Of a stretch of DNA of 64,000 bases, positions 778 through 61,841 are shown piece after piece. Source of the DNA: Candidatus Heimdallarchaeota archaeon (GTDB lineage: Archaea; Asgardarchaeota; Heimdallarchaeia; JABLTI01); assembly GCA_030614005.1 (NCBI GenBank), contig JAUWKS010000002.1, positions 96,101 to 160,100 of the forward strand, given 5' to 3'. The notes below the pieces were generated by a model. The model saw nothing but the letters and a program-made list of their open reading frames with translations, searched no databases and was not told the DNA's origin. Numbering within the stretch: position 1 is the stretch's first letter; every line of letters begins with the position of its first letter. The position numbers were made by a program, and so were the translations under genes.

Positions 778-1917
778 CTATGCTTCAAGCCTTCTCTTCT
801 TCGAGGTGGTTGCCCTCTCCGAGTTAGCATTATCATGATCAGCGAAGGAATGCATCTCAGCATCCATAGCAGTATCAAGCTCTTCTCTTTTACTTGCCGA
901 TAATGAGATATTTCCATTTTCCATTATTAATCTCCCATCATAATAATCATTTATAGCCAAATTGACCATAATTAAGAGATGGTTTCGTAAAGAATTTTTT
1001 CCATAACGCATTGACTCAACTATTCGGTTCAATTCTTTTGAGTGATAGATATGGGTATATAACTTCAAATGATTGTCTTGACTTTCTTCAAGTTCCTTTT
1101 TTAATTTTTGGAAATTAATTGAACCATTTTGTTTATCATAACGATAAGAAGTCATAGATGGTTTTTTTCGGGTGATAGAAGAAGCAAGTTTATCATAATG
1201 CTTCAAAATTGGTAAGAAAGGATTTGTGCTTTCTTCTCCGTTGTGGTGGTTCTTACAGGCTTCTTTAATCTCCTCATCCTCAATATCTATCCGTTGATAG
1301 ATTTTGCTTTGATGTTTCTCGGTATGAACGAAATCGTGAAGCATGAGAGCAATGAGTAATTGTTGTAATTCCTCGGGATAATCTGCTCGTATACCAGCTC
1401 GAATCTTGAGTTTTTTGTAGGGCCAAGTTTGCTTGCAAGCAGTACATCGTTTGAGTTTAGAAACCTTATCGTAGATAACCGTTGTGTTTTTACATTGTGG
1501 ACATTTCTCAGATAAAGGAACAGTTACAGTAGGAAACGTTTTTGTAAAATGCTTAATTTCACATGATTCCCAAATGACTCTACCATGCCCTTCAGCAGTC
1601 TTTGAACCCAAAAATGATTTCTGGAGAAATGGTTCTATTTTCCTCTTTAATTGTTCTTCTGAAAAACCCACGCAACTGATTTTAACAAATCCTCGGAATC
1701 CTCGTAAGACAGTAGGATACTGATTCTTACCATAGACCAATTTACCTACAGTTGTAAAGAGAGGTTTGTTTTCCTTCTTTGGATCTCCGACCACTTTTAC
1801 CAGACACCCATACTTCCAATATGTTGATTGTGAAACAATAACAGGATTGATTATTCGACCTACTAAGGTAATAATTTTTTTTTGTTTTAGTTGTAAGCTT
1901 TCCATTCGTCTAAACAC
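778..1917 (-). CDS. RAMP-like/Zn-finger/HD-like fusion protein (small Cas5/Cas6-like RAMP with G-rich loop, CxxC..CxxC, helical domain with HD-like motifs), copy 1
   Basis: The N-terminal ~120 aa ends in a glycine-rich loop (LGSKTAEGHGRVIW) typical of RAMP proteins. This is followed by CPQCKN...CTACKQ, then LMLHDFVHTEKH...NHH...NHLL...NDYYDG, which resembles the permuted HD arrangement of Cas10-type HD domains. Paralogs are at 25734-26738 and 59365-60504. The gene overlaps the downstream end of the Cas7-like gene by 31 nt, consistent with an operon. Confidence 0.45.
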   Translation of the reverse strand: MFRRMESLQLKQKKIITLVGRIINPVIVSQSTYWKYGCLVKVVGDPKKENKPLFTTVGKLVYGKNQYPTVLRGFRGFVKISCVGFSEEQLKRKIEPFLQKSFLGSKTAEGHGRVIWESCEIKHFTKTFPTVTVPLSEKCPQCKNTTVIYDKVSKLKRCTACKQTWPYKKLKIRAGIRADYPEELQQLLIALMLHDFVHTEKHQSKIYQRIDIEDEEIKEACKNHHNGEESTNPFLPILKHYDKLASSITRKKPSMTSYRYDKQNGSINFQKLKKELEESQDNHLKLYTHIYHSKELNRIVESMRYGKNSLRNHLLIMVNLAINDYYDGRLIMENGNISLSASKREELDTAMDAEMHSFADHDNANSERATTSKKRRLEA

Positions 1918-2819
1918 TCCTGTAAGAGATGATTTTGATTCTCAATTTGTTCAACTTCGAGGATAGCGATTTTTCCGTTAATCTCTGTACCTAACTTTCG
2001 TTCTTGGAAAATGCGCTCAAAAGTTATGTCTTTTATTTCTAATCGACCATAACCACTATTTTCTCCTTTGCCTAAATGAGTGATACCAAAAATTCCCTTA
2101 ACTAATAATCCAAGCAACCACTCAGGTAATTCTTTGGTAAATTCTACATAAAATTGAAATTCACCAGAGAAATATTGTTCAGAGAAATCTTGTAATGATT
2201 TGCCGTCTCGTCTTGCAGAGTGACGATTCTCAGTAGAAACATGAACAAAAGAAAGTCCTTTTTGAGCAGTAATTTTGTTTAGTGATTTATCAGTTTGGAT
2301 AAGCACATCACTCCACACTTTGATTAAAGATTTTTCTCCGAGCATACCAAAGAGTCGTCGAATAGCACAGGGACTTTCTCCACACTTTCCCATAAGGTGT
2401 TCATTTTCAAGAAGTGTAGGCTCTCCAGTCCCTTTGAATTGTTCTTTCATAGTTGGAGAACAATAACTTATTCCTTTTCCATGTAGAATATTCATGATAC
2501 TATGTCTAAGAGCTCCTCGTATACCTTTCACTGCTCGAGAGTTTCCATACTCCTCTTTTAGAATTGATACTTGTATTTTCGCATCTTTCTTCTTCTCAGA
2601 AGCTTTGGCTCTTAGCTCTTCTAAATCATCAAGAACTATATCTTTGTTTAGAATGAGAAATTCTTCCAAGTCAGACACTTTAACGTTTGTCTTTCCTTGA
2701 AATTGGTAAGGTATCTCTCCACCCTTCATAAGAAATGAACTTGATCCACTACTACCGTTTAGTGTTTTTGTAAAGTATGCATAGACTCTTATTGTTAACC
2801 GATTAAATGTTTGTGTCAT
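1887..2819 (-). CDS. Cas7-like RAMP protein (Csm3/Cmr4-like), copy 1; the ORF could start at 2873 but the paralog alignment favours the Met at 2819
   Basis: Contains the RAMP hallmark AVKGIRGALRHS (cf. Cas7 GSS-[IL]-KG-x-LR-[ST]). A Cys pair followed by LFG (GKCGESPCAIRRLFG) resembles Csm3/Cmr4. A C-terminal glycine-rich loop (GKGENSGYGRLEI) is present. Paralogs are at 26729-27508 and 60474-61418. Confidence 0.55.
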   Translation of the reverse strand: MTQTFNRLTIRVYAYFTKTLNGSSGSSSFLMKGGEIPYQFQGKTNVKVSDLEEFLILNKDIVLDDLEELRAKASEKKKDAKIQVSILKEEYGNSRAVKGIRGALRHSIMNILHGKGISYCSPTMKEQFKGTGEPTLLENEHLMGKCGESPCAIRRLFGMLGEKSLIKVWSDVLIQTDKSLNKITAQKGLSFVHVSTENRHSARRDGKSLQDFSEQYFSGEFQFYVEFTKELPEWLLGLLVKGIFGITHLGKGENSGYGRLEIKDITFERIFQERKLGTEINGKIAILEVEQIENQNHLLQECLDEWKAYN

Positions 2820-2911
2820 GATAACTAACCAATTAACCATATAGTCAACCATATATTTAAGCATTTTGTACATAAGAAAATTAAAGAATAATCAAAGATA
2901 CAGTTAATTAG
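2820..2911. promoter_or_regulatory. Divergent promoter region between Cas7-like gene and AbrB-like gene (cassette 1)
   Basis: A ~90 nt AT-rich spacer between divergently oriented genes, with TATA-like runs. The same ~100 nt arrangement occurs in the other two cassettes. No specific boxes could be assigned. Confidence 0.25.
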
Positions 2912-3100
2912 ATGGTACAAATGGGTGAAGCAAAGAAACCGACTATAAAATTCAAACGAAAAATCGTTGGAAATACGGGTGTAACAAGAATAACAATACC
3001 TAAAGAAATTACAAACGCATTAGACATTCACTTAGGAGAATATTGGGAAGTTTATGCTGAGGATAATGATACGATAATAGTGAAAAGAATCAAAGAATGA
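2912..3100 (+). CDS. AbrB/SpoVT-family (swapped-hairpin) DNA-binding protein, cassette-associated regulator/antitoxin-like
   Basis: 62 aa; KRKIVGNTGVTRITIPKEITNALDIHLGEYWEV fits the AbrB/MazE looped-hinge-helix pattern (..G.s..itIPKeire.lgi..Gd.v). Four paralogs lie in the window, three of them divergent from Cas7-like genes. Confidence 0.65.
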   Translation: MVQMGEAKKPTIKFKRKIVGNTGVTRITIPKEITNALDIHLGEYWEVYAEDNDTIIVKRIKE

Positions 3101-3122
3101 TAATGTTAGGTTCTCAATAGTA

Positions 3123-3197
3123 TCCCATGTGGAGCGTCGTGAATCACTGTAAGTGATGAACAGCGACTGCATGAGTCTGCTCCGAGCAAGAGCATTG
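3123..3197. ncRNA. Candidate structured non-coding element at the 3' edge of duplication unit A
   Basis: 75 nt, GC-richer than its surroundings, and able to form nested hairpins (tggagc...gctcca; atcact-gta-agtgat; gcgtcg/cgactgc). The flanks are 100% identical to the copy at 61722-61796. The central hairpin carries 6 substitutions, including one compensatory pair. Confidence 0.3.
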
Positions 3198-3244
3198 GTT
3201 TTCTTCTTTGTAAATATCAGAATTAAAAAAAATCTTTGTTGGCC

Positions 3245-5001: not shown

Positions 5002-5949
5002 TCACGTTGTCCGGTGATGATAGAAACCCATCTGTTCGCGAAGATCAGAAAGGGCAGTGAAATGAACGACTTGGCTAAGATTGAGAGATAGCTCGGGATG
5101 GGAAGGATCAGCCTTAGCACGAAGATTATATGCTTGAATGGCATGAAGAGCCTTGTCACGGTCACGCTTAAAGGGAACAAGGACAACATAACGACCGCGA
5201 CCACGCAACTCTTTTTCAGCGGTCAAGAGACGTTTGAGAAAATCGCTCTCATTATACGCTTTACTGCCGGTGTGAACCTCAAACCACCAAAGAGTGCTAC
5301 CACCGGTATGATCAACGCGAAGGCAATTATCAACAACAAAATCACCACTGCCGTCCCAATGGGGAAAACGCCAAAGATTATCAGAAGCATGAAAGAGACT
5401 GCCCTCAAGACCGGCGCGAAGAACACGAAAAGAGAGCTCGGCAAAAGCGTCGTGAGGGGGAAACCGCGCACGAAAATTGCGGGGAAGAAGGGGATAATGC
5501 TCACGAGGATAACCAAACCAATAGGCAAAACGAACACCAGTACAAGGCATGGGATAGGCACGAACAAGACCTAAGCGAAAGAGACGAAGAGAACCACCCA
5601 AACCAGAAAAATACTCTCTATCAGCATAGCACTCGCCAGTGGTCAAATGAATGCGAAGACTATCATCACAATAACGATCAAGAAAAGAGCCAAAAAATTT
5701 CCTGAGAAGAAAGAGAAAATCATTAATCGAGAAAAGGGGCTGAGGAGAACCAAAAGGATTGGGAGTAAGAGATTTCAAGAAACGGCGCTCGGACTTTTCT
5801 AAAAGATGGAAGGGAAGATTATCAAAATTAAGAGTGGAATGAGAAGGCCAACCGGAAGGAAGAACAGGGGGAAGAGAAGATTTGACACGCTTGACCAAGG
5901 AAAACAACAACAATAAAAAATGAAAAAGAAAATATAAAAAGACCAACAA
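5002..5949 (-). CDS. Hypothetical protein inside a GC-rich compositional island; only the C-terminal ~180 aa look globular
   Basis: Long ORF in a region whose GC content and purine skew differ sharply from flanking DNA. The C-terminal part has diverse composition (…VVDNCLRVDHTGGSTLWWFEVHTGSKAYNESDFLKRLL…). The N-terminal ~100 aa are low-complexity, so the true start may be the internal Met (MPCTGVRF). Function unknown. Confidence 0.3.
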   Translation of the reverse strand: MLVFLYFLFHFLLLLFSLVKRVKSSLPPVLPSGWPSHSTLNFDNLPFHLLEKSERRFLKSLTPNPFGSPQPLFSINDFLFLLRKFFGSFLDRYCDDSLRIHLTTGECYADREYFSGLGGSLRLFRLGLVRAYPMPCTGVRFAYWFGYPREHYPLLPRNFRARFPPHDAFAELSFRVLRAGLEGSLFHASDNLWRFPHWDGSGDFVVDNCLRVDHTGGSTLWWFEVHTGSKAYNESDFLKRLLTAEKELRGRGRYVVLVPFKRDRDKALHAIQAYNLRAKADPSHPELSLNLSQVVHFTALSDLREQMGFYHHRTT

Positions 5950-17367: not shown

Positions 17368-18750
17368 TTGAGAAGATGGAAAATATATTTAATATGTAAT
17401 ACAATACAAAGTATCAGGGATTCGAAATTGGGATTGAGAAAACTAAATAGTACTGCAATAGTAGTAGTGATTGTATTAATTATCTTTTCAATAACTGGAA
17501 TAGCTATTTTCTTAGGGAATAGAAGTAAACCAATCACAATTATTGAAATAAATCATGTGAGCGATTTCTATCAAAGATATCATTTTCCTGGAAAAGGAAC
17601 GGAAGAAGAGCCTTACATAATTGAAGGATATAGATTGTCGGGTAATAAATACCATAACATCAAAATCTCATTAATAAAAGAGCATTTTATCATTCGAAAT
17701 TGTGTTGTGGAAAATTCAAATAAAGGAATTGAACTTATTGGATGTGAAAACGCAAAAATTATCAATAATACTATCAGAAACAATGATTTTGGAATTTGGA
17801 ACGGTGAGGGTATAATTAAAGGTAATTTGTTTAGTAATAATTTCAGTCCAATTGCCGGTTCTGTGTGTTGCAGAATACAATCAAATATCTTTAACAATAG
17901 CAAGTCAAATCCGAAGGGATGGAATGATGGAATCAGATTTTCTTCCTATGAAACAATAATTGAAGACAATATTTTCAATTCATTTGGCAAAGCGATAGTT
18001 TTGGATCGCGGAAGAGTAATTCAAGTAAAAAATAACTCGTTTAGGAATTGTGATTTTGGTGTTATTGTTAATGATGTTACGGACTGTAAACTAACATTTA
18101 ACACAGCGATAAATTGTACCACAGGGTTTACAATCATTCGAAGTGAAGAGATAGAATTATTACATAATAATTCAACAAAAAACAGAGAGAACGGATTCAA
18201 TATCGATACTGCTGAAAACTGCCTAATAGAAGGAAACAATGGATCAGGAAATGGAGACTATGGCATCTTGATGAAACGGATGACAAATGGGGATATACGA
18301 AATAATTACTTTGAGAGGAATAATGCAAGCGGTTTGTGTTTGTGGGTAGGGGATTATTATTCCATTAATAATAACTCTTGTAGCAATAACAACATAGGGA
18401 TAGAATTGAGCTGTGTAAATAATACTTCAATAAACTATAACAAAATTGAAACCAATAAAGAATACGGAATTGTAACAAGCGGTACAAATGCAACAATATG
18501 GAATAACAATTTCATAAACAACAATAATGACAATAACCCAACAATTACTTCGCAAGCGAAAGCAATAGTGAATGGAACAGGAATTTTTGATGAAAAATAT
18601 TATGGTTATCCTGAATGGTACAAGAAACAAGAAGAGAGAGGAAACTATTGGTCTGAATTAGTTTGGGCTATTGGAATAGAATATTTGATAGACCCAGGAA
18701 ATTGTACAGATAGCTATCCGCTTGAAAAACCAATAATGATAGATATATAA
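17368..18750 (+). CDS. Membrane-anchored right-handed beta-helix (pectate-lyase-like) repeat surface protein, paralog 1
   Basis: 460 aa. An N-terminal TM anchor is followed by many NN[ST]IxxNxxGIxL repeats. The C-terminus is conserved with its paralogs (GNYWSELVWAIGIEYLIDPGNCTDSYPLEKPIMI). Confidence 0.55.
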   Translation: MRRWKIYLICNTIQSIRDSKLGLRKLNSTAIVVVIVLIIFSITGIAIFLGNRSKPITIIEINHVSDFYQRYHFPGKGTEEEPYIIEGYRLSGNKYHNIKISLIKEHFIIRNCVVENSNKGIELIGCENAKIINNTIRNNDFGIWNGEGIIKGNLFSNNFSPIAGSVCCRIQSNIFNNSKSNPKGWNDGIRFSSYETIIEDNIFNSFGKAIVLDRGRVIQVKNNSFRNCDFGVIVNDVTDCKLTFNTAINCTTGFTIIRSEEIELLHNNSTKNRENGFNIDTAENCLIEGNNGSGNGDYGILMKRMTNGDIRNNYFERNNASGLCLWVGDYYSINNNSCSNNNIGIELSCVNNTSINYNKIETNKEYGIVTSGTNATIWNNNFINNNNDNNPTITSQAKAIVNGTGIFDEKYYGYPEWYKKQEERGNYWSELVWAIGIEYLIDPGNCTDSYPLEKPIMIDI

Positions 18751-18943
18751 AATCTCTATTATTTCATTAGTTTTTTTAGTAGATACTGTAAAAGTAAAGC
18801 TTCAAATGAACCACCTGTACAGTGACTTTTTTTTGTCAGTTATTTCAAATGAGTAACATAAGAATAAATTTCCTAAAAAAAGGAAACATTTATAACATAA
18901 TTTATGTACTTAATTATTGCTCTTTTTGAAAAGGAGCTGAGAG
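18751..18943. repeat. Duplicated intergenic segment (partner 21992-22190)
   Basis: ~170 nt that are nearly identical between the two copies (…aaatctctattat…agtagatactgtaaaagtaaagcttcaaatga…gtgacttttttttgtcagttatttcaaatgagtaacataagaataaatttccta…). Confidence 0.6.
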
Positions 18944-20440
18944 TTGGGAAATATGAAAAGACAAAAAAAACAGATAATTGTGGGATTATTACTTTCAATA
19001 ATCATTATTGGAATAATGAGTCCTTTAATTTCAAATGTTCGAGCAGCAAGTTATGCACTAGGTTACGTGAAAGATGATGGAACACGTGCAGGTATTGCTA
19101 GTGTTTATGTGACTGTTTATGGAAGATACGTGGATTCATATGGAAGGTTAAAATCCTTCTCAAGGAGTGGGTATACTAATTCATATGGTCGTTATTTGAT
19201 TACTCTCCCCAGTACAACCGTTTACACAAATGGATTAAGGGCTTCAAAAACAGGTTATGTTACTTACGATGGTAGTGTTGTAAATCCAGTTTATTTATCT
19301 GCGAAAGCTATCTCACTGCGCTTTACTGGTAAAGTTTTAGAAAAAACCGAAATCAATAATATTAAATATGTAAATTCAGGTACAAACACACTTACCTTAG
19401 ATTTACTCAATGATGGCCAAATAACAGGTTATTCCGATGTAATTACTGAGAAAATTATTTATGTAAGAATATATGATAAAAGCAACAATCTACTAAGGAC
19501 TGTATCATGCAATCAAGCAACAGGTTATTACGATACAGGTTCCTTCGGAGCACCAGCAGGAAATATAAAAGTCGTTATTACAGCAACACCCAGTGATATA
19601 AAACGATACAAAACAATAACCTACACTGAGGAATTTTTATCCACGAAAACAACTAATAAGAACTTCTATTTGGAGAGAGATTTAGGTGAAGTTTGGGCCT
19701 ATGGGGATGATGGAAGTTTTGATGATATTGATTATCATAAGCTAAAAGCCTATCATCCTAATAGTGGTGCCTTTTGGTTTGATGTAATGGACACGACCAT
19801 ACATACCAGTTGTCCTTCAACGATTGTTTATGAGCCTACTACAACAAAAACTACTTGGTCATGGTTAACAACATATTTTAATTGTAGAGGAACACAGCAA
19901 AACTTTATTGATAAAAGTCTAATTCGTGAAGCGAAAATACAGCTTTTTGTACAAAATAGATGGACAGATGATACTGATGTTATCAAAATGGGAAGAATTG
20001 ATAATCAACATAGTGAAGGATTTACAGCCGGTAACTTTGATTGGAATATTCAGGCATCATTGGGATATTCTGGATTGAATAATCCAATAGGCGGACAATT
20101 ACAACTATCGGGATCATATGAAGAGCCAGATGGAGTTATCCCTGATAGCAAGTCTATTGAACCAAAGGATAGAGTAAGAGAAGGAGATTGGACAGAAATT
20201 GGATGGATTACCATGGATTACACTAATCATAAGAAGTATCTTCAAAAATCATTACACACTCACTGGCAAATTGGTATTGATAATGAAAACTATTTGAATT
20301 TAAAAAATTGCGGTTCAAATATAAGATTCAAAGTAGTATATGGATTAAAATACAATCTTGCCAAGCGAATATATGGCAGAGTTGTTATGGCATACTTAGA
20401 TATGAACAAATTCTTGGTGATGATTGCGAATCTGGATTAA
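18944..20440 (+). CDS. Secreted CarboxypepD_reg/Ig-like fold surface protein, paralog 1
   Basis: 498 aa with a signal/TM N-terminus (KKQIIVGLLLSIIIIGIMSPLISNVRA) and a transthyretin-like segment (GYVKDDGTRAGIASVYVTVYGRY). Paralog at 22191-23798. Confidence 0.5.
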   Translation: MGNMKRQKKQIIVGLLLSIIIIGIMSPLISNVRAASYALGYVKDDGTRAGIASVYVTVYGRYVDSYGRLKSFSRSGYTNSYGRYLITLPSTTVYTNGLRASKTGYVTYDGSVVNPVYLSAKAISLRFTGKVLEKTEINNIKYVNSGTNTLTLDLLNDGQITGYSDVITEKIIYVRIYDKSNNLLRTVSCNQATGYYDTGSFGAPAGNIKVVITATPSDIKRYKTITYTEEFLSTKTTNKNFYLERDLGEVWAYGDDGSFDDIDYHKLKAYHPNSGAFWFDVMDTTIHTSCPSTIVYEPTTTKTTWSWLTTYFNCRGTQQNFIDKSLIREAKIQLFVQNRWTDDTDVIKMGRIDNQHSEGFTAGNFDWNIQASLGYSGLNNPIGGQLQLSGSYEEPDGVIPDSKSIEPKDRVREGDWTEIGWITMDYTNHKKYLQKSLHTHWQIGIDNENYLNLKNCGSNIRFKVVYGLKYNLAKRIYGRVVMAYLDMNKFLVMIANLD

Positions 20441-20680
20441 CGTATACATGGCAAAATCTTTGGAATGATGGTGTGAAACTTGACTTTGTTGATGGTGATT
20501 ATACTGCTCAAGATTTTATGGTGAACTTATTAGCTGGTGAAGCATCAACAGTACCAATATCACAATGATGTACTTAATAGTTTGTTATATTTGATAGCAA
20601 ACTATTTTTTTCAATTTCACAAAAAAAAACAAATAAGATAAATTTTGGAAAGAGAATAACATTATATCTGAGGGATAGAA

Positions 20681-21991
20681 TTGAAAAACACAAAAAGAAA
20701 TAGATTATTTGCACTATTAGTTATCAGTCTTATTGTTACAGTTACAGGAACATCAATTTTTTTAGGAATTTGGTTTCGACCTATAAAAGTGATTGAAGTT
20801 TATGACAACAAAGATTTTTCACGGAAATATCATTTTCCAGGCAAAGGTTCGAAAGATAATCCATATGTCATTGAAGGATATACTTTATCTGGAAACAGTC
20901 ATCATAATATACTAATTCGAGATGTATCAAAATATTTCATAATTCGAAATTGTGTTTTAGAGGGATCCAACAAAGGAATTAATCTTCTAAATCTAGAAAA
21001 TGGTTTTGCGAGAATAGAAAACAATACAATTCAGAATAATGTTTATGGTATTCTTATAAAGTCATGTTCAAATTTTATAATAAAAGGAAATGATTTTGAG
21101 GATAATTCTAGAGGAATTGAATCTAGCTCAATTGGAAATGGACTTATAGAAGATAATGTATTTTCAAATTGTGGAAATCAAGGAATGTTCCTTGGTCCAG
21201 ATTATAACATAACAATTCAAAACAATATTTTTAATAATTGTCGTGATGGATTCATTATCTTAGATTCTAATTTAATTTCAATAAATGGAAATACATTCAA
21301 CAATTGTAGTAGAACAAGTTTTGAAGCTCAATATATCAATAACATCAATATTCAAGGTAATACTGCTGTGGATTGTGGAAGTGGTTTTAATGTTGTGTAC
21401 AGTGAAAATGTAATCTTTTTGAGGAATAATTTCACAAAAACCAAAGATTGTATATGGGCCAGCTATTCGGATACAGTAGTAATAGAACAAAATTATTGTA
21501 GGGCAAGTGACACAGAAGGAATAAGAGCATTTGGAATTTCTAATGGAAGAATCAGCAATAATACGTTAGTTTCGAATAACGAAGAGGGACTATACATCTG
21601 GGGTAGTTTACAAATAAAGGTAAATAACAATTCATGCTATAATAATACAATTGGATTGAAGGTATTTTGCTCGAATCTAATAGATATAACCAATAACACT
21701 TTCGAACATAATTTAGAATATGGGGTAGTAACCAAAGGAGCAAATGCTACAATATGGAATAACAATTTCATAAACAATGATTACACAAATATCACTACAA
21801 TAAACTCTCAAGCAAGAGTAGATGGAAATTGTACAGATTGGATAGGATTTCCTATTTGGTATAATGACGATGCCTTACAAGGAAATTATTGGTCGGAGTT
21901 AATATGGTATGAAGGAGTAGAATATTTAATCGACCCAGGAAATCACACAGATAGCTATCCGCTTGAAAATCCAATAATGATAAATATTTAA
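20681..21991 (+). CDS. Membrane-anchored beta-helix repeat surface protein, paralog 2
   Basis: 436 aa, collinear with 17368-18750 and 23959-25311. Confidence 0.55.
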   Translation: MKNTKRNRLFALLVISLIVTVTGTSIFLGIWFRPIKVIEVYDNKDFSRKYHFPGKGSKDNPYVIEGYTLSGNSHHNILIRDVSKYFIIRNCVLEGSNKGINLLNLENGFARIENNTIQNNVYGILIKSCSNFIIKGNDFEDNSRGIESSSIGNGLIEDNVFSNCGNQGMFLGPDYNITIQNNIFNNCRDGFIILDSNLISINGNTFNNCSRTSFEAQYINNINIQGNTAVDCGSGFNVVYSENVIFLRNNFTKTKDCIWASYSDTVVIEQNYCRASDTEGIRAFGISNGRISNNTLVSNNEEGLYIWGSLQIKVNNNSCYNNTIGLKVFCSNLIDITNNTFEHNLEYGVVTKGANATIWNNNFINNDYTNITTINSQARVDGNCTDWIGFPIWYNDDALQGNYWSELIWYEGVEYLIDPGNHTDSYPLENPIMINI

Positions 21992-22190
21992 AATCTCTAT
22001 TATTTTCATCAGTTTTTTTAGTAGATACTGTAAAAGTAAAGCTTCAAATGAAGCACCTGTACAGTGACTTTTTTTTGTCAGTTATTTCAAATGAGTAACA
22101 TAAGAATAAATTTCCTAATAAAAGGAAATATTAATAACATAATATATATCATTGAATATGCTCTTTTTGAAAGGTGAAAGGAGTTGAGAG
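21992..22190. repeat. Duplicated intergenic segment (partner 18751-18943)
   Basis: Near-identical to 18751-18943, indicating tandem segmental duplication. Confidence 0.6.
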
Positions 22191-23798: not shown

Positions 23799-23958
23799 TT
23801 AAGATTTTTTGCTAAATTTCTAGCAAAAACATTCTCTTTTTTTGGATTAGATGTGTGATTTAAGCATTAGTTTAAATAATGAAAATTTATAACAATCTGG
23901 AAAACATTGGGAATGAACTACCTTTGGATTTTTAACATATTATTATATAAAAACAGTA

Positions 23959-25733: not shown

Positions 25734-26738
25734 CTATGTTAACGCTTTTTTCTTTTCGCTACTCATGCTAGTAATTCGATGCATCTCAGCATCTCTGATA
25801 GTGTTAAGATCTTCATCTTCTTCATCTATCGATGTTGAGACATTTCTTACTAGGTATACTTTTTCTCTGCTAATTTTCAACCATTGATTGTAGTAGCTAG
25901 TTATTGCAAGATTTACCATTAGTAGTAAGTGGTTTTTGAGTGAGTTTCTTGCATATCTAAAAGACACTACTACTCTATCTAATTCTATAGATTTGAGTAT
26001 ATAATCATACAGTTTATTGGTTGATTCTTGTCTTGCCTCTATTTCTTTTGCTAATTTAACAAAGTCTATCTTACCGTTTTCGAAATCATATCGTCCCTTT
26101 GTCAAATAGCTGGTTTTTCTGTTCATGTATGCCGCTACTTGGTCGAAGTATCTTACTATTGGGTGTAAATTATTCCCTTTTATTTTCCTCACATGATGAT
26201 TTTGACATGCTTCTCTTATTTCCTCATCATTGATTTCTACTTCTTGGAAAATCTTACTCATATGCCTCTCTGTATGCACAAAATCATGAAGCATCAGAGC
26301 TCGAAGTAATCTTTGTAGTTTCTTAGGATAATTTGTTCCCAAACCCTTTCGTATTCTGAATTTCTTTCGTTTTGGTTCTGAAGGTATTTTCTTGTATTTT
26401 TCTTCTTTATACTCTAACCACTTTACTTTTCCAAGGCCATCATTCTTTTTACTTCCTAGATATTCCTTCCTAAGATATTGTTTGATTGTTTCTTTTCCTC
26501 GAGTTTCATTACAATCTACTGTTGTTACTCTTACGAATCCTCTATATGCTAGGTATTCATCGGGTATTTTTCGTTCCCCTTTAATCAATTTTCCAACATA
26601 ACTTTTGAGTGGTTTTTCATTTGTTTCTAATTCTCTAACTATTCTTATCCAGACCTTTCCTTTCTTAAGAAGTGGTTTTGAAGCAATTATTGGTGAGAGT
26701 AATTCACCAGTCAGAGTATAGAGTGTTCTTATTTCCAT
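25734..26738 (-). CDS. RAMP-like/HD-like fusion protein, copy 2 (divergent; lacks the CxxC pairs)
   Basis: 334 aa; G-rich loop LGSKKNDGLGKVKW, then LMLHDFVHTERH...ACQNHH...NHLLLMVNLAITSYY, collinear with 778-1917. Confidence 0.45.
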   Translation of the reverse strand: MEIRTLYTLTGELLSPIIASKPLLKKGKVWIRIVRELETNEKPLKSYVGKLIKGERKIPDEYLAYRGFVRVTTVDCNETRGKETIKQYLRKEYLGSKKNDGLGKVKWLEYKEEKYKKIPSEPKRKKFRIRKGLGTNYPKKLQRLLRALMLHDFVHTERHMSKIFQEVEINDEEIREACQNHHVRKIKGNNLHPIVRYFDQVAAYMNRKTSYLTKGRYDFENGKIDFVKLAKEIEARQESTNKLYDYILKSIELDRVVVSFRYARNSLKNHLLLMVNLAITSYYNQWLKISREKVYLVRNVSTSIDEEDEDLNTIRDAEMHRITSMSSEKKKALT

Positions 26739-27508
26739 GCTTTCAACACCTCATCCATCTCTTTCCAGAGATTTTGTTCTGATTCTTTTTCGATTACTTT
26801 TCCTTTCTTTACAGTTCTCGTCCTTGTTACTTCTTGCAAATTCACTTCTAGTAGGTCTATTTTCCCAGCACCGTTATTTGCCGATGCACCCCACCGTATT
26901 TCGGGCATGTAAAGAATACTTTTCAAAAGGAATCCTAGTAACTCTTGATCTAGCTCTTTTAGTAGTTCGATCTCCAAGTTAAATTCACCAGCAATGAATC
27001 GTTCTCTAAAATCTTGTGTGCTTCTCTTTGAATCTTTCATTAGAGCATTTCGTATTTCAGTAGATAGATGTACTTTCTGTGCGTCATTAATTTCTTCTTT
27101 GATGTTATCGGATGTTATTATCACAGGATTAAATCTCACTACGGATTGTTTCTTTAAGGACCCCATTAATTTATGTCTAATGCATTCTTCTTCTGGATAG
27201 CATGAACCATTAAGATGATACCCTTCAGGTAGTAATGGTTCTCCTTTCTGTGTTGTCTTTTTATCAGATATGTGACATACTTCTATTTCTCTTTGTTTTG
27301 CCAGTTCCATCATTGCGTGATTCAATACGCCTCTTAATCCTTTTACTAAGTATCTCTTACCCTCTTTTCCACCATTTGGATTATAGACTAATAGCAGATT
27401 TTTCATATTCCCTCTTGCCATCTGACCATTTCCAGGTTTCGCTATGGAGGTTCTAACAGTTATTTTTATTCGCTTAAACGTTCGAGAGACAAACATAAGT
27501 TTCACCAT
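26729..27508 (-). CDS. Cas7-like RAMP protein, copy 2 (divergent)
   Basis: 259 aa with RYLVKGLRGVLNHAMMEL (G-x-LR motif). The N-terminus RTFKRIKITVRT is collinear with the copy 1/3 N-termini. It overlaps the downstream RAMP-HD gene by 10 nt. Confidence 0.5.
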   Translation of the reverse strand: MVKLMFVSRTFKRIKITVRTSIAKPGNGQMARGNMKNLLLVYNPNGGKEGKRYLVKGLRGVLNHAMMELAKQREIEVCHISDKKTTQKGEPLLPEGYHLNGSCYPEEECIRHKLMGSLKKQSVVRFNPVIITSDNIKEEINDAQKVHLSTEIRNALMKDSKRSTQDFRERFIAGEFNLEIELLKELDQELLGFLLKSILYMPEIRWGASANNGAGKIDLLEVNLQEVTRTRTVKKGKVIEKESEQNLWKEMDEVLKAWK

Positions 27509-27608
27509 ATTAATGTAATATATATTTAATATATATTATTTATCTATTTAAACGCTTCGCTGAGAATATTTATATTTAAATTTAATTAGTACAATATAGT
27601 GATGTGCT
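27509..27608. promoter_or_regulatory. Divergent promoter region, cassette 2
   Basis: 100 nt AT-rich spacer between the Cas7-like gene and the AbrB-like gene. Confidence 0.25.
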
Positions 27609-28231: not shown

Positions 28232-28282
28232 ATTTCGTGGTGTTCTTATTTTTCGTACAAATAAAGCTAAGAGGAACGAGAC

Positions 28283-30357: not shown

Positions 30358-30407
30358 TAATTTAGAACAGATTTTACCACAATTATTTGTAGAGAGTATT
30401 TAATTTA

Positions 30408-31688: not shown

Positions 31689-33260
31689 TTGACGGTACTC
31701 AATTGGCAAACGGATCCAATTTATTTTGATGTTGAGGATAAACCGGTCAATCAATGGATAAATGCCAATGAGTTAATAGAAAGCAATCATAGAGAAGAGA
31801 TCTTTCTTAATAGCATTAGTATTCTCAATCTGTTTCCTATCCTCGTTCGCAGGGCTGATTTTGTGCGGGAAAACCATTCTGACCGTATCCTTGCCCGTTT
31901 ACCATTTGTGCAGCTAACTGAGGAGGAAAAAGAATTTGTCAGTAATCAAGATCTTCTCGTCGCTGAGAAATTGCGTGATTATTTTTATCAATCGGATAAT
32001 CGTAAGATCCTTGAATGGAGGGATGTTTTGCGAAAGTATCTCGAGCGAGGTGCTGTCCCCCTGCCCTTCTATCGCTGTTTTCCGGAAGACCTCGAACTTA
32101 ATTTCCATGAAAGAATCCTTGAATCCTCTCGAGGGGAAACGTTTGGTATGCCCACTACTTTGACTAATGAATTAGCCTACCTTTGTGGTATGGTCAATGG
32201 TGATGGTAGTCTCACTAAATATGTCCTCAATATCATAGATTATTCCATAGAAAATATTAGACAACTAAAAGAACAGTTCGAGCGATTATTCCGGCAAACT
32301 GGTAGAATTCAGATGCAAACTGAGAACAGCCCTGCTTTAATTATCACTAATCTTTGGGTTGTCCGCTTTTTCTCGTTTCTGACAGATCAACCAATAGGAG
32401 GAAAGAAATATCAAAATCTTAGTGAACCACTCCTTCTCCAAGAACAACCATTCCGTTCCCATTATTGGTCTGGTGTGATGGATGCAGACGGGAGTTATGC
32501 AAATGGAGGAATTTCTTTTACTTCTGCCAGTAAACATTATGCAAAGAAATTCAGTGATTTTCTGGAATCACTGACAATAAAACCAACTTTTTTTGACCGT
32601 CCAGATAACACTTTTCGAGTTTATATTCCTCGAAAGTTCAATTTATTGTATAAGAGCAAAATGTTTAGTTTCCATCCTGAAAAGAGATTAGAATTCCAAA
32701 AGCTGAAAGAAGGAAGAGAGAAAAAAGCTAAAGTAACATATCTATTTCAAGAATTTAATCAAAATACTATGAGAAATAATTATTTTGATTTTAGTTTAAT
32801 GATAGACATACAAGTCACTGGATTAGGAGAGTATCTAAAAGAAACTCGAAATAACTTAACTCAACATGAATTTGCTCAGAAAATAGATGTAAGTACGAAG
32901 ACACTTCAATTGATGGAAAAAAATAGAAGTGCAATTTCCCTTAATACTCTAGAAAAAATTCTGTTAAAGCAAAAAAAATCCTTGATGCAATTTTTAATGT
33001 TCTATGGACGTCAAATCCAATTTAGAAGATTTAGAGCTCCACCAGTGTTTCTTGATTACAGACCATCTAATCAATTGAAATATTTTGCTAAAAAAATGTT
33101 GTTTTTTAAAAATCATATTCGAATTGATAGCAAAGATAAGAAATTGAATTCCCAAATTGAAAATCATTTTGGTATAAAGATAGAAAACAATGTCATTAAC
33201 AATGGGGTTATTAGATACTTTTTCAAAACATTTTGCAATCTTACAAAACAAGAAGACTAG
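31689..33260 (+). CDS. LAGLIDADG-motif protein with C-terminal HTH, paralog 2 (TTG start)
   Basis: 523 aa, collinear with paralog 1 (LAYLCGMVNGDGSL; HYWSGVMDADGSY). The N-terminal third is ~80% identical to paralog 1 at nucleotide level. Confidence 0.6.
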   Translation: MTVLNWQTDPIYFDVEDKPVNQWINANELIESNHREEIFLNSISILNLFPILVRRADFVRENHSDRILARLPFVQLTEEEKEFVSNQDLLVAEKLRDYFYQSDNRKILEWRDVLRKYLERGAVPLPFYRCFPEDLELNFHERILESSRGETFGMPTTLTNELAYLCGMVNGDGSLTKYVLNIIDYSIENIRQLKEQFERLFRQTGRIQMQTENSPALIITNLWVVRFFSFLTDQPIGGKKYQNLSEPLLLQEQPFRSHYWSGVMDADGSYANGGISFTSASKHYAKKFSDFLESLTIKPTFFDRPDNTFRVYIPRKFNLLYKSKMFSFHPEKRLEFQKLKEGREKKAKVTYLFQEFNQNTMRNNYFDFSLMIDIQVTGLGEYLKETRNNLTQHEFAQKIDVSTKTLQLMEKNRSAISLNTLEKILLKQKKSLMQFLMFYGRQIQFRRFRAPPVFLDYRPSNQLKYFAKKMLFFKNHIRIDSKDKKLNSQIENHFGIKIENNVINNGVIRYFFKTFCNLTKQED

Positions 33261-46644: not shown

Positions 46645-48273
46645 ATGCAAGACTTTCTCAATTGGCGAACGGATCCATTACTAGTGGATATTGAACCTGC
46701 CAGACCTAACCAATGGTTCACAGCAAATGAGTTAATAGAGGGAGATAGAAGAGATTCATTCATAACACCGGAAAATCAATTGCTTCTTTATCCAATCATG
46801 ATCCGAAAAAACGATTTCATAACCGGGGAACGAATCTTGCAATCGTTTCCATATATTCTATTAGACACTAGAATAATTTCCAAATGTCGTAAACAATCTC
46901 TTGCATTAGCAGAAAAAACCCATTATTATTTTCAAGGCTCTAATTATAATCATTCTATTCGTGATTGGCAGAAAAAGTTCATCAGTTATTTAGAAGAACA
47001 ACAACGCCTGCCTTTTCCTCTATTTCGACTTTATGATGATTGGTTAGATTATATAAAAGAGAAAAAATTTGCTCGATTCCAATCTGCTCGAGGAGAGAAT
47101 TTTCAATTACCACTTTATCTTTCCGAGGACTTGGCTTATCTTTCCGGTGTGGTTATGGGTGATGGTCATCTGGCGGAATATTTTGTTAATATCATTGATT
47201 CTTCAAAAGAGCACATTCTAAATTTAAAAGAAAAGCTTGAAGAGCAATTCAATTCCAAAACGGAATTTTTCAAACAACCAAACGCTAAAGCTTGGAATGT
47301 CAATATTCTAGGTAAATGGATCGTTCGCTTCTTTAACTTTATTTTATCACAACCAATTAAAGAGAGAAAATATCCTGCTCTTAGAGAACCATTTATTTTT
47401 CGAGAGAATGAGTATTTTCGCAGTAGGTTTTGGTCAGGATTGATGGATGCAGATGGTACCTATAAAAGAGTTATTGGATTTAGTTCTGCATCCAAACAAC
47501 TTCGATCTGACTTTTCTAATTACTTAGATGAAAACAATATAAAACATCGATTTTATGAGTATAGTGTTTTTGGTGGAACTACTTTTAGTATAACTATTGC
47601 AGGTCATTCAAGAAAGCCATTTGCTCAACAAATAGGTTCAAATCATCCAGATAAACAACAAGAACTGCAGTTACTATTACAGAAAAAAGTCTATCGATTT
47701 TCACCTCGAATTACTACTCTCAGAAAAAAAAACTCATGGAACGAGCAAGTTCAAGACTTTTCTAAAGATGCAATCCTTGATGGTTTTTTTAATCTTTCAT
47801 TAATTACCACTCTACAAATTTTAGATTTAGGTAGTGATATAAAATCACTGCGAAAAAAGCACAAGGAAAAACAAAAAGAATTAGCTTCATATTTAGAGAT
47901 TACCCCTAGTTTACTTTCAAAATATGAATTAAATAAAACAGCACTTCCAATTTATATTCTTAAAAAGATACTTTCAAAATACAATGTTTCATTTAATCAC
48001 TTTTTTTCTCAATTAAGTAATTTAATTTTCCGTTCTACAAGTTCTAGTTGTCAGTTTCCATTAAAACCAGAAGAAAGGTTATTGACTTTAATTAGAGGAT
48101 TACAAATTATGCCAGAAAATTATTTTCGAGTTATAGGATTGAGAGAAGTGTCAATTGAACATTATAAGAAAGAAATTAGTGATTATTTTAAAATTAATGA
48201 ACCTATAACAGATGTTTTTCATAACGCTTGTTTAGTTGAATTGATTCGATCATTTTGCTTAATCCGAAATTAA
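46645..48273 (+). CDS. LAGLIDADG-motif protein with C-terminal HTH, paralog 3 (more divergent)
   Basis: 542 aa with LAYLSGVVMGDGHL and RFWSGLMDADGTY motifs and a C-terminal HTH-like region. The N-terminus MQDFLNWRTDPLLVD parallels MTVLNWQNDPIYFD of paralogs 1/2. Confidence 0.55.
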   Translation: MQDFLNWRTDPLLVDIEPARPNQWFTANELIEGDRRDSFITPENQLLLYPIMIRKNDFITGERILQSFPYILLDTRIISKCRKQSLALAEKTHYYFQGSNYNHSIRDWQKKFISYLEEQQRLPFPLFRLYDDWLDYIKEKKFARFQSARGENFQLPLYLSEDLAYLSGVVMGDGHLAEYFVNIIDSSKEHILNLKEKLEEQFNSKTEFFKQPNAKAWNVNILGKWIVRFFNFILSQPIKERKYPALREPFIFRENEYFRSRFWSGLMDADGTYKRVIGFSSASKQLRSDFSNYLDENNIKHRFYEYSVFGGTTFSITIAGHSRKPFAQQIGSNHPDKQQELQLLLQKKVYRFSPRITTLRKKNSWNEQVQDFSKDAILDGFFNLSLITTLQILDLGSDIKSLRKKHKEKQKELASYLEITPSLLSKYELNKTALPIYILKKILSKYNVSFNHFFSQLSNLIFRSTSSSCQFPLKPEERLLTLIRGLQIMPENYFRVIGLREVSIEHYKKEISDYFKINEPITDVFHNACLVELIRSFCLIRN

Positions 48274-59364: not shown

Positions 59365-60504
59365 CTATGCTTCAAGCCTTCTCGTCTTCGAGGTGGTTGT
59401 CCTCTCAGAGAGAGCAGTATCATGGTCAGTGAAGGAAAGCATCTCAGCATCCATAGCAGTATCAAGTTCTTCTCTTCTACTTGCCGATAATGAGATAATT
59501 TCATTATGTATTACTAATTTTCCATTATAAAAGTCATTTATTGCTAAATTTACCATTAACAAAAGATGATTTTTCAAGTAATTTTTTCCATACTGGAAGG
59601 ATTCTACTATCCTTTCAAGATTATCTGAAAGAAGGAGATAATTATAAAGTTTTAGATGATTAACTTGATTCACTTCAATATCTTTTTTTAATTGCTGAAA
59701 GTCAATCTTCCCTTTTGACTTGTCATAGCGAAAGGTTGTCTGGTATGGCTTCTTTCGAGTGATGTAAGAGGCAAGTCTATCGTAATACTGCACTATTGGT
59801 AGGAGCATATTGGTACTTCCTTCTCCATTGTGGTGGTTTAGACAAGCTTCTCTAACTTCTTCATCTACGATGTCTATCTGTTGGAAAATTTTACTGTTGT
59901 GTTTCTCTGTGTGAACAAAATCGTGTAGCATGAGAGCAATAAGCAATCTTTGTAATTCCTCAGGGTAATCTGCTCGTAAACCAGCTCGAATTTTGAATTT
60001 CTTATACTGCCATGTTTGATTACAAGAAGTACATCGTTTGCGTTTAGAATTTTTATCATAGATTGTTGTTGAATTCTTGCATTGAGGACATTTCTCAGAT
60101 AAAGGAACGGTTACAGTAGGATCTGTTTTTGTAAAATGCTTGATTTCACATGATTCCCAAAGGACTCTACCATACCCTTCAGCAGTCTTTGGACCCAAGA
60201 ATGATTTCTGGAGAAATGGTTCTATTTTCCTCTTTAGCTGTTCTTCTGAAAACCCCACACAACTGATTGTAACAAATCCTCGGAACCCATGTAAGACCGT
60301 AGGATACTGATTCTTGCCATAGACCAATTTACCTATAGTTGAAAAGAGAGGTTTAGTTTCCTTCTTTGGATCTCCGACCACTTTTACCAAACACCCGTGC
60401 TTCCAATATGTTGATTGAGAAACGACAATTGGATTCACCAACCGACCCACGAGTGTAGCAATTTTCTTTTGTTTTATTTGTATGTTTTCCATGCGTCTAA
60501 ACAT
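59365..60504 (-). CDS. RAMP-like/Zn-finger/HD-like fusion protein, copy 3
   Basis: 379 aa, collinear and highly similar to 778-1917 (GPKTAEGYGRVLWE; CPQCKN..CTSCNQ; LMLHDFVHTEKH; NHLLLMVNLAINDFYNG). Confidence 0.45.
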   Translation of the reverse strand: MFRRMENIQIKQKKIATLVGRLVNPIVVSQSTYWKHGCLVKVVGDPKKETKPLFSTIGKLVYGKNQYPTVLHGFRGFVTISCVGFSEEQLKRKIEPFLQKSFLGPKTAEGYGRVLWESCEIKHFTKTDPTVTVPLSEKCPQCKNSTTIYDKNSKRKRCTSCNQTWQYKKFKIRAGLRADYPEELQRLLIALMLHDFVHTEKHNSKIFQQIDIVDEEVREACLNHHNGEGSTNMLLPIVQYYDRLASYITRKKPYQTTFRYDKSKGKIDFQQLKKDIEVNQVNHLKLYNYLLLSDNLERIVESFQYGKNYLKNHLLLMVNLAINDFYNGKLVIHNEIISLSASRREELDTAMDAEMLSFTDHDTALSERTTTSKTRRLEA

Positions 60505-61418
60505 TCCTGTAATAGTTGATTTTGATATGTAGTTCTTTCTTCCTCAATGATAGCTAATTTCCCATCACCATTTTCTTGCCCTAATTTTCTCTCGAAAACT
60601 ATCTTCTCATACGAAACATTTTTTATCTCAAGACGACCATACCCACTATTTTCTCCTCGACCAAGATACTTTAAAGAAAAAATTCCATCAATAAGTAGCC
60701 CAAGTAACCATTGTGGGAGAGATTCTGAAAATTCAACATAGAATTGAAACTCTCCACTGAAATATTGTTCACTAAAATCTTGCAAGACTTTTCCATCTCT
60801 TCGTGAAGCATGACGATTCTCAGTAGAAACATGAACAAATGAAAGGCCTTTTTGAGCAGTGATTTTATTAGAAGGTTTATCGGTTTGTACGAGAGCATCA
60901 GTCCATACTCTTATAGGGGACTTCTCACCAAGCATACCAAATAACTGTCTTACAGGGCATGGGTTCTCTCCACATTTACCCATAAGATGCTCGTTGATTA
61001 GTAAGGTTGGTTCATTGTTTCCTTGAAATCTCTCTTTCATAGTAGGAGAGCAATATTCAATTCCTCTGTTATGTAGAATCTCCATGATACTATGTCTAAT
61101 TGCACCACGAACGCCTTTAACCATCCGAGAGCTTCCAAGTTCTTCTTTAAGAGTAAAGACTTGAATTTTAGCGTCGTTTTCCTTTCCTTCTGCTTTAACT
61201 TTTAGCTCGTTAAAATCATCAAGAATCAAATCTTTGTTGGTTAAGAGGAATTCCTCTAATTCTGAAACCTTAACATTTGTTCTACCTTGAAATTGATAGG
61301 GAACGTCTCCCCCTTTCATAAGAAAGGAACTTTTACCGCTACTTCCATTAAGCGTTTTCGTAAACCAAGCATATACCTTAACTGTTAAACGATTGAAAGT
61401 GTGTGTCATAATCATCAT
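60474..61418 (-). CDS. Cas7-like RAMP protein, copy 3
   Basis: 314 aa with MVKGVRGAIRHSIMEIL, GKCGENPCPVRQLFG and GRGENSGYGRLEI, collinear with 1887-2819. Confidence 0.55.
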   Translation of the reverse strand: MMIMTHTFNRLTVKVYAWFTKTLNGSSGKSSFLMKGGDVPYQFQGRTNVKVSELEEFLLTNKDLILDDFNELKVKAEGKENDAKIQVFTLKEELGSSRMVKGVRGAIRHSIMEILHNRGIEYCSPTMKERFQGNNEPTLLINEHLMGKCGENPCPVRQLFGMLGEKSPIRVWTDALVQTDKPSNKITAQKGLSFVHVSTENRHASRRDGKVLQDFSEQYFSGEFQFYVEFSESLPQWLLGLLIDGIFSLKYLGRGENSGYGRLEIKNVSYEKIVFERKLGQENGDGKLAIIEEERTTYQNQLLQECLDAWKTYK

Positions 61419-61514
61419 ATAACATTAATGATTCATTACTTTTAAAGGTTTCTAATTAGTATTTTTAAAGAATGTTTATATTGCCGTATTCAGTAATTCT
61501 AATTTGTGGTAAAA
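61419..61514. promoter_or_regulatory. Divergent promoter region, cassette 3
   Basis: 96 nt AT-rich spacer between divergent genes, the same arrangement as in the other cassettes. Confidence 0.25.
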
Positions 61515-61685
61515 ATGAGCGAAGAAATACCAAAAATAGTATGGAAAAGGAAAGTAATCTACAATTCTGGTTCATTTCGAATATCATTGCCGATAGAAAT
61601 AGCTGATGCTTTTGATATTCAAAAGGGACAACTACTACAACTGTCTGTTGAAGGAAAACGGATTATCGTCGAACTAATTGATTGA
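61515..61685 (+). CDS. AbrB/SpoVT-family DNA-binding protein, copy 3
   Basis: MSEEIPKIVWKRKVIYNSGSFRISLPIEIADAFDIQKGQLLQLSVEGKRIIVELID; 56 aa, below the ORF-track cutoff, homologous to 2912-3100. Confidence 0.6.
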   Translation: MSEEIPKIVWKRKVIYNSGSFRISLPIEIADAFDIQKGQLLQLSVEGKRIIVELID

Positions 61686-61721
61686 AATTTTTAGCCATAT
61701 TAATTTAATTATTCAATAATC

Positions 61722-61796
61722 TCCCATGTGGAGCGTCGTTTATCACCGTAGGGGATAAACAGCGACTGCATGAGTCTGCTCCGAGCAAGGACATTG
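61722..61796. ncRNA. Candidate structured non-coding element, copy B (partner 3123-3197)
   Basis: Flanks are identical to copy A. The central hairpin differs (ttatcaccgtaggggataaa vs gaatcactgtaagtgatgaa) yet is still foldable. Confidence 0.3.
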
Positions 61797-61841
61797 AAAG
61801 AAAATAACAACTATCTAATAATAGTTAAATCAAAAAGGGAT

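Follow-up and report, generated by a model that had tools for sequence, protein, structure and literature searches.

What does a CRISPR-derived effector module bind when no CRISPR array accompanies it? Array-less RAMP (repeat-associated mysterious protein) systems of Asgard archaea (ARAMP) derive from type III systems; two reviews call their mechanism enigmatic and name no RNA partner (PMC8730458, PMC12669027). The question is raised here by a 64,000-nt stretch of a Candidatus Heimdallarchaeota genome (assembly GCA_030614005.1, contig JAUWKS010000002.1, positions 96,101 to 160,100; hereafter the window), in which two duplicated RAMP cassettes, A and B, each close with a short non-coding element. 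An original prediction had described this element as hairpin-rich, with a variable core between invariant flanks, and had proposed a guide, scaffold or regulatory RNA, or else a protein-binding or attachment site. Our data indicate that selection very probably acts on the element as a structured RNA, and we class it with the small structured RNAs that are linked to RAMP genes of CRISPR origin.

Inspection of the sequence located both copies where they had been predicted, copy A (TCAATAG...CATTGG) at 3114-3198 (+) and copy B at 61713-61797 (+). In the repeat search they appear as a direct repeat of 84 nt with 88% identity (family D14). The predicted length of 75 nt was too short, the conserved unit measuring ~85-90 nt with the outer helix UCAAU/AUUGR. 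Pairwise alignment recovered the announced identical flanks, as runs of 18 nt on the 5' side (TCCCATGTGGAGCGTCGT) and 32 nt on the 3' side (AACAGCGACTGCATGAGTCTGCTCCGAGCAAG), and exactly six substitutions in the centre (G>T, A>T, T>C, A>G, T>G, G>A). The relative GC richness was also found (~53% vs. 33% for the window), making the element a GC island, and the similarity between A and B ends at the 3' end of the element, in agreement with a location at the end of the cassette. The divergence of the remaining cassette DNA had been put at 10-15%, which is too low, as it amounts to 20-45%: the other cassette repeats are 72-79% identical, and the AbrB-like gene directly upstream aligns poorly, far below these values. 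The contrast between the element and its cassette is therefore stronger than had been stated.

The covariance search for further copies that the prediction had recommended was made with a covariance model (CM), R1, trained on seven main-type copies and run unfiltered. It returned two diverged members in the window, near 33.3 and 48.3 kb, and eight further distinct copies on contigs of related Heimdallarchaeota (L011, L012, L024, L027, L028, L045, L047, L053), the related loci being fetched regions that encode RAMP homologues. Several loci were counted as the same copy (L024 = L025; L028 = L029; L045 = L046; L047 = L048 = L051 = L052; L053 = L054). The family comprises 12 distinct members, 10 of the main type (A, B and the eight in relatives) and 2 diverged. 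The diverged members are both GC islands in intergenic DNA and have in common with the main type the 5' block UAAUAGAA, the loop CUGUAAG and the block UAG(C/U)G, while their helices differ in sequence and are still complementary. The 48.3 kb member carries the CUGUAAG loop on the compensated helices UCGC/GCGA, GACGC/GCGUC and AUCGC/GCGAU. A broader model built on all 12 sequences found no more members in the window or in 17 other loci. An exact 20-mer search of GTDB genomes gave 2 matches in Acidobacteriota, which is about the chance number, both in GC-rich DNA with no surrounding similarity; the 20-mer had no match in viral contigs, and the 13 viral matches of a 16-mer were rejected as non-members (CM scores of 14-18 bits for six, none at E<=1 for seven).

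The 12 sequences were aligned with a structure-aware model (alignment A9), in which 24 pairs give 288 pair cells. In the fold, helices P1, P2 and P3 make up a long, irregular hairpin, which P0, a short outer helix rich in AU, closes. In the columns of A9, P0 occupies 4-8/89-93, P1 16-19/65-68, P2 22-26/58-62, and P3 30/56 and 34-42/46-54, with a GUA loop as its cap. Within the hairpin, P1 has 4 bp and P2 includes a tandem G.A/A.G; next come a 3x1 internal loop and P3, which carries either a second tandem G.A/A.G or its Watson-Crick replacement. The hairpin loop reads C(U/C)GUA(A/G)G, and the 20-nt 3' tail, AGUCUGCUCCGAGCAAGAGC, is almost invariant in sequence.

Standard pairs fill 83% of the 288 cells. 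Changes on both sides affect 12 of the 24 pairs (24 cells), compared with 5.3 +/- 1.5 pairs in column shuffles, and none of 500 shuffles reached this number. When partners were slid by 1-3 columns as a control, only 0-4 pairs were changed on both sides. In P1 the variants are CAUG/CAUG, CACG/CGUG, CACA/UGUG, CAUG/CGUG (a U.G intermediate), UCGC/GCGA and CGCG/CGCG. The variable core is the paired middle of P3 and exists in three discrete, internally compensated versions, GA/GA, UU/AA and UC/GA. Core type 1 (tandem G.A/A.G, with U-A beside the loop) was observed in A, L012, L024, L027, L045 and L053, core type 2 (U-A/U-A, with C-G beside the loop) in B, L011 and L028, and the third version (U-A/C-G) in L047. 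The compensatory T>C/A>G pair expected from the comparison of A and B does lie beside the GUA loop, at a position which is U-A in 9 family sequences and C-G in 3, and two other core changes turn the tandem G.A/A.G into U-A/U-A. The same core had been read as guide-like, a variable segment between conserved handles; since it is base-paired, whereas a guide would be single-stranded, the element is not a guide.

The nested stems predicted for the two copies stand out unequally in single-sequence folding energy, moderately in copy B (z = -2.7) and not at all in copy A (z = -0.8, unremarkable). The support for the structure thus comes from covariation and not from energy. An alternative pairing between GGAGC in the 5' arm and GCUCC in the tail is not preferred, since covariation is lacking and two sequences carry an A>C that is left uncompensated, although a switch or pseudoknot of this kind is conceivable.

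The non-standard cells give the strand. G.A or A.G accounts for 41 of these 49 cells, and G.U is present in 6 pair cells; read on the opposite strand, these cells become C.U/U.C and C.A. Folded single strands often contain sheared G.A pairs in tandem as a stable motif, which is not the case for tandem C.U pairs. Because the mismatches are almost all G.A/A.G on the + strand for A and B, which is the sense of the AbrB-like gene, this is the folded strand. Also, runs of eight and six T directly follow the 3' ends of the two stand-alone copies in the orientation of the model, as archaeal terminators would.

All 12 copies are linked to a RAMP module. The 10 main-type copies all lie on the same strand as the AbrB-like gene, 4-64 nt after its stop codon (4-24 nt to the CM match in nine main loci, 64 nt in one), and the two diverged members end the right arms of further RAMP modules in the window. 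The genes past the module vary between genomes, and the element therefore moves with the module as its last feature. Selection on the element is apparent from its conservation: main-type copies have 82% nucleotide identity overall and 87% in the 3' part, compared with 59% in the last 156 nt of the adjoining AbrB-like genes. These genes range from 43 to 97% nucleotide identity and fall into at least three protein subtypes, beside which the element is constant. One copy (L024 3626-3709, the same as L025 783-866) has a 6-nt deletion that drops one unit of the tail direct repeat GAGCA-A-GAGCA, the rest being intact. Copy B is a mosaic, with flanks identical to paralogue A and a hairpin core identical to L011 and L028 from other genomes, a pattern that points to gene conversion acting on the flanks in this genome or to recombination among copies of the element.

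Known classes of RNA and of mobile DNA did not account for the family. With Rfam 15, the whole window gave no match at the gathering threshold, and only noise of 8.6-15.5 bits was obtained at E<=10 around copy A and the 48.3 and 33.3 kb members. A tRNA or tRNA fragment was rejected, as ARAGORN found none in the window, no Rfam tRNA match was obtained and no T-arm motif was visible by eye on either strand. For a box C/D small RNA, UGAUGA is present only in type 1 or L047-type cores, with GGGAUAA in type 2, and CUGA is in no copy. The ACA of copy A that could suggest an H/ACA RNA lies inside the covarying P1 and is absent from L012 and L024. A bulge-helix-bulge motif was rejected by eye: there is one 3-nt bulge on the 5' strand (G27 U28 C29), opposite A57, and no second 3-nt bulge 4 bp away. 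A CRISPR repeat does not fit either, since there is no repeat-spacer alternation and the element copies are 15-58 kb apart. The 3' end AUUGA(A/G)(A/G) does resemble the tag of a CRISPR RNA (crRNA); it forms the 3' strand of P0 as well and is not followed by a conserved guide. Integron attC sites were rejected on the basis of the termini (CTCAAT...ATTGAG), of the absence of an integrase among the scanned open reading frames (ORFs) and of any core-site remnant at the left cassette boundary, no attC covariance model having been run. A miniature inverted-repeat transposable element or other small mobile repeat is at odds with the main copies, which are all syntenic after the AbrB-like gene, and no target-site duplication was seen in the flanks. 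We found no description of the element: it has no Rfam family, and the two CRISPR reviews consulted mention no such RNA.

Equivalents of the element were sought in more distant modules, as GC-rich islands after the second gene, and were rejected: the island of L021 turned out to be a tRNA with introns, and those of L005, L007 and L010 to be coding sequence of ESCRT-III-like type. The first is an apparent tRNA gene with intron-like inserts (GCCGGGTGGTCTAG ... GGGTTCGAATCCCATCCCGGTCACCA), recognised by eye at ~6090-6230 of L021, ~50 nt downstream of the RAMP module. L021 lies in a 2.26-Mb contig (GCA_019058195.1), presumed to be Heimdallarchaeota from RAMP homology.

We tentatively favour the view that the element is a ~90-nt structured RNA of the RAMP module, forming a lineage-restricted Heimdallarchaeota family and probably bound by protein as a scaffold or a regulator. 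For the main type, this RNA would be made on the AbrB-like transcript, and for the two diverged copies as a short transcript of its own. Either the RNA-binding RAMP proteins would use it as a scaffold or ligand, or it would regulate the module; the features recognised would be the tandem G.A motifs, together with the conserved loop and the invariant tail. Loop and tail are constrained in sequence, the tail being invariant even at what would be third codon positions of an ORF on the opposite strand. A stronger version, in which an array-less Cas7-like effector has the element as its dedicated RNA ligand of non-CRISPR kind, with RAMP proteins assembling on it and the tail as a recognition or pairing surface, is unlikely.

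Several observations weigh against the scaffold or regulator view. No counterpart was detectable in the homologous modules L004-L010, L021, L023 and L043, whose RAMP proteins are 55-74% identical where measured; in element-less loci, the AbrB-like gene is directly followed by a LAGLIDADG+HTH (helix-turn-helix) or HEAT-repeat gene, or is missing. The presence of the element roughly follows the RAMP subclade at least 69% identical to copy B, with L021 (74%) and L023 (69%) as exceptions. Because about half of the homologous RAMP modules are without it, the element is not an obligatory effector RNA and is not generally required by the RAMP proteins; it is rather an accessory that arose in one lineage than a universal component. 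The two diverged copies point the other way with respect to their module. The tail had no significant complementarity to promoter and 5' regions of the module, with z-scores scattering around 0, and its other matches in the window amounted to one site with 3 mismatches; by-eye inspection gave no archaeal promoter assignment. Regarding the fold itself, the covariation rests on 12 related sequences in a structure-aware alignment. Support is weak for the short, AU-rich P0, which is broken in L054, and for a small 3' hairpin. The latter is evident in both diverged members and imperfect in B, L011 and L054; it cannot form in L024/L025, where the 6-nt deletion removes its 3' arm (GAGCA).

The preferred reading has to be weighed against others. 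The element could be a cis-acting 3' untranslated region element of the AbrB-like mRNA that stabilises the message, signals its processing or termination, or insulates the end of the module's right arm; it would then neither act in trans nor bind RAMP proteins. The shared orientation speaks for it, as does the distance of 4-24 nt from the stop codon in nine of the ten main copies, too short to accommodate a promoter of its own. Also, the element is always last in the right arm, and modules whose right arm continues have none after the AbrB-like gene. However, two members have no adjoining AbrB-like gene, are antisense to their neighbour and possess their own T-runs, the element is constant beside the very different AbrB-like subtypes, and elements for stability or termination rarely need an invariant 20-nt single-stranded sequence; we thus regard a purely cis-acting role as possible but somewhat improbable. 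A site acting at the DNA level is less probable again. Here, a single-stranded or cruciform hairpin with an attC-like layout would mark the module boundary for a recombinase or for the AbrB-like or LAGLIDADG+HTH proteins. Its position exactly at the end of the duplicated unit, the short terminal inverted repeats CTCAAT...ATTGAG, its two orientations relative to the module and the varied genomic contexts of the module would agree with this, and a folded DNA strand would also give covariation and G.A mismatches. But no integrase or recombinase was present among the 27 window ORFs scanned, no target-site duplication was visible by eye in the flanks, and the R/L box layout and GTTRRRY core of attC are missing. 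The duplicated attachment site that had been proposed is unlikely because no part of the element, even as a partial copy, recurs at the other cassette boundary. T-runs come after the stand-alone copies as they do for transcripts, and the copies occupy orthologous positions across species, which implies vertical inheritance.

Two further explanations carry little weight. The element could be a solitary, degenerate CRISPR-repeat-like unit, in which a Cas6-like cut after the small 3' hairpin would leave the 5' handle AUUGAGGN, the downstream RNA serving as a fixed crRNA-like guide for the RAMP proteins. The 3' end AUUGA(A/G)(A/G) is exactly AUUGAAAG in copy B, the 8-nt tag common on archaeal crRNAs; the element adjoins the genes of the Cas7-like and second RAMP proteins, and the window lacks a CRISPR array. 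Nevertheless, AUUGA is accounted for by its pairing with UCAAU in P0, and the downstream sequence is not conserved among A, B and other loci; where it is conserved, it resembles the promoter or 5' region of the next gene. Given also that the diverged copies end in T-runs with no downstream guide, that the small 3' hairpin has lost its 3' arm in L024/L025 and that there is no Cas6, this explanation is very improbable. Finally, the opposite strand could encode a small protein of 23-40 aa (MLLLGADS...TVIHDAP), from an ATG-initiated ORF that is open in all 10 main-type copies and in which the L024/L025 deletion is in frame. The frame is broken after codon 18 in L052 and the C-terminal part differs by a 1-nt indel; ~14 non-synonymous against ~8 synonymous changes were counted by eye in the aligned sequences, with the first 8 codons invariant even at third positions. 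As the two diverged members have no such ORF and the covariation would be unexplained, we consider a coding function hardly credible.

The genes with which the element travels were also characterized (Table 1). The linkage to RAMP genes announced by the original prediction was borne out, these genes being Cas7-like according to Pfam, PADLOC and Foldseek. In Foldseek, the structural model of the cassette B protein best matched Csm3 and the Cas7 subunits of types VII and I (E values as low as 2e-6), and the true start of the cassette A gene is probably internal, near MTQTFNRLT. The product of the second gene (379 aa) combines an N-terminal RAMP-like domain, a zinc ribbon and a helical C-terminal domain with an invariant LHDFVH...H...HH...D. 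It has weak Cas7/Csm3/Cmr matches over ~190 residues and is not resolved as Cas5; no Pfam family scored above threshold, and an HD nuclease identity of the helical domain was not confirmed. The AbrB-like gene is transcribed divergently from these two genes and its position is kept in all related loci. Some modules also carry a LAGLIDADG+HTH protein, whose gene follows the AbrB-like gene in L004-L006 and L021. Judging from source names, nearly all homologues of the RAMP and second proteins belong to Candidatus Heimdallarchaeota, and a few belong to bins of other Asgard or other archaea. No CRISPR array was present in the window, where the tandem repeat finder gives a single non-CRISPR row. Cas6 was absent, no adaptation gene was found among the scanned ORFs, and no Cas1, HNH or PD-(D/E)xK nuclease was encoded within or beside cassettes A and B, in a scan that covered part of the window ORFs. 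A PDDEXK_1 gene lies ~4 kb from the module in L043 only.

Table 1. Position of the element copies, of the helices of copy A and of the associated genes in the window.
Feature	Position	Strand	Basis and remarks
Element copy A, main type, core type 1	3111..3200	+	CM R1 101.8 bits; alignment A9 column mapping; pair counts
Copy A, P0	3114-3118/3194-3198		
Copy A, P1	3126-3129/3170-3173		
Copy A, P2	3131-3135/3163-3167		Includes tandem G.A/A.G
Copy A, P3	3139-3148/3152-3161		
Copy A, GUA loop	3149-3151		
Copy A, conserved 3' tail	3174-3193		
Element copy B, main type, core type 2	61710..61799	+	CM R1 106 bits; UU/AA for GA/AG, C-G for U-A beside loop
Diverged member, 33.3 kb	33307-33397	-	R1 24.1 bits, E 7e-4; GC island; T6 run after 3' end; 47 nt past stop of second LAGLIDADG+HTH gene, opposite strand to that gene
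Diverged member, 48.3 kb	48305-48394	-	R1 (not trained on it) 29.8 bits, E 1.7e-5; fold z = -3.2; T8 run after 3' end; 32 nt past stop of LAGLIDADG+HTH gene, opposite strand to that gene
AbrB/MazE-like gene, cassette A	2912..3100	+	PF04014 E 1.8e-4, below gathering score; element CM match starts 10 nt after stop
AbrB/MazE-like gene, cassette B	61506..61685	+	PF04014 27 bits, above gathering score; element CM match starts 24 nt after stop
Cas7-like RAMP gene, cassette A	1887..2873	-	PF03787; Cmr1/Csm3 models (PADLOC); homologues
Cas7-like RAMP gene, cassette B	60474..61418	-	AlphaFold model, predicted local distance difference test (pLDDT) 84; Foldseek
Second cassette gene, copy A	778..1917	-	Alignment A4; model
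Second cassette gene, copy B	59365..60504	-	Alignment A4; model
Third, more diverged RAMP pair (334-aa second-gene homologue and 259-aa RAMP)	25734..27508	-	ORFs; PF03787 for 26729-27508; duplications D3, D17
LAGLIDADG+HTH gene before 33.3 kb element	31689..33260	+	PF14528, PF01381
LAGLIDADG+HTH gene before 48.3 kb element	46645..48273	+	PF14528, PF01381, PF12844

The third RAMP pair has no AbrB-like gene, and its right arm runs through two LAGLIDADG+HTH genes, spaced 3406 nt, to the 33.3 kb element. Within this region (25734-33260), the right arm is partly duplicated, with a 78-nt copy of the RAMP 5' end at 29973-30050 (88% identity). The 48.3 kb member follows a cassette apparently disrupted by a TnpB-type element. 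The TnpB-type gene, 44833-46473 (-), encodes 546 aa with OrfB_IS605 and a Cas12f1-like TNB domain, and a 62% GC island (44836-44961) covers its 3' end, where an omega-RNA is expected. A 59-nt stretch just past this gene (44351-44409) shares 75% identity with the second gene of the RAMP modules, at its 3' end; the insertion sequence may have disrupted a fourth RAMP cassette. Beyond the element, L011, L012, L027 and L045 encode on the same strand a conserved protein of 172-178 aa (MTK..QQFTLEQI..), apparently frameshifted in L024, and the AT-rich block AAATAGTAAAATGAAAGA, common to these loci, lies between the element and its gene.

Array-less RAMP loci described in Asgard archaea (ARAMP) and in Haloarchaea (HRAMP) hold Cas5 and Cas7 homologues plus HNH or PD-(D/E)xK nucleases, ARAMP usually with Cas1 (PMC8730458, PMC12669027). 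The present module has in common with them a Cas7-like and a second RAMP protein, the lack of an array in the window and of an adaptation gene in the scanned ORFs, and an Asgard host; it differs, as far as review descriptions allow comparison, by its composition of two genes plus an AbrB-like gene with no Cas1 seen, and by a conserved RNA where none is described. CreA of CreTA, scaRNA and the delocalised crRNAs of CRISPR transposons are also small conserved RNAs beside RAMP or Cas effector genes and outside an array, and the 3' end of the element resembles the AUUGAAAG tag. However, there is here no repeat for comparison, no conserved spacer-like segment and no matched target, and the conserved part is a 60-nt hairpin, not a repeat-derived handle. 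The element shares with integron attC sites its location 3' in a gene cassette and its build as an inverted repeat with imperfect pairing, with structure better kept than central sequence and one strand favoured, but it lacks IntI, the R''/L''/L'/R' boxes and the GTTRRRY core, it has a 20-nt invariant unpaired tail, and its copies are orthologous across species and not shuffled. L7Ae-bound archaeal K-turn RNAs (box C/D, H/ACA) are similar in being small GC-rich RNAs of comparable size in an AT-rich genome, with tandem sheared G.A pairs in helices. In contrast, C/D boxes are not conserved here, no 3-nt bulge stands directly 5' of the G.A pair, and Rfam small nucleolar RNA models give 10-14 bits.

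Other parts of the window deserve mention. The ~950 nt at 5002-5949 (-) have a foreign composition, with up to 62% GC, a T/C-rich - strand and long ORFs on both strands; a 315-aa ORF has no Pfam family and there was no Rfam match at E<=1. The region could be an acquired gene or a large RNA. Three tandem units of ~3.25-3.3 kb, 67-93% identical, occupy 17368-25311 (+), each with paralogous genes of ~440-535 aa. Between the RAMP cassettes, 38428-43671 and 48594-55914 hold very large ORFs (1747, 1392 and 1058 aa); the 1392-aa ORF has no Pfam family, and the 1058-aa ORF has DEAD/Helicase_C, MrfA zinc-binding and metallophosphatase domains. This region looks like a defence island.

We report here a conserved element, very probably a structured RNA, that moves with an array-less RAMP module across at least ten Heimdallarchaeota lineages. 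The element gives a testable entry to the question of what array-less RAMPs bind. Even if it were only a regulatory 3' element, it would be a new archaeal RNA motif with tandem G.A features, fit for an Rfam entry. If the reading as an RNA ligand is true, it would be the first RNA partner for the orphan ARAMP/HRAMP-like systems, and this in the closest archaeal relatives of eukaryotes.

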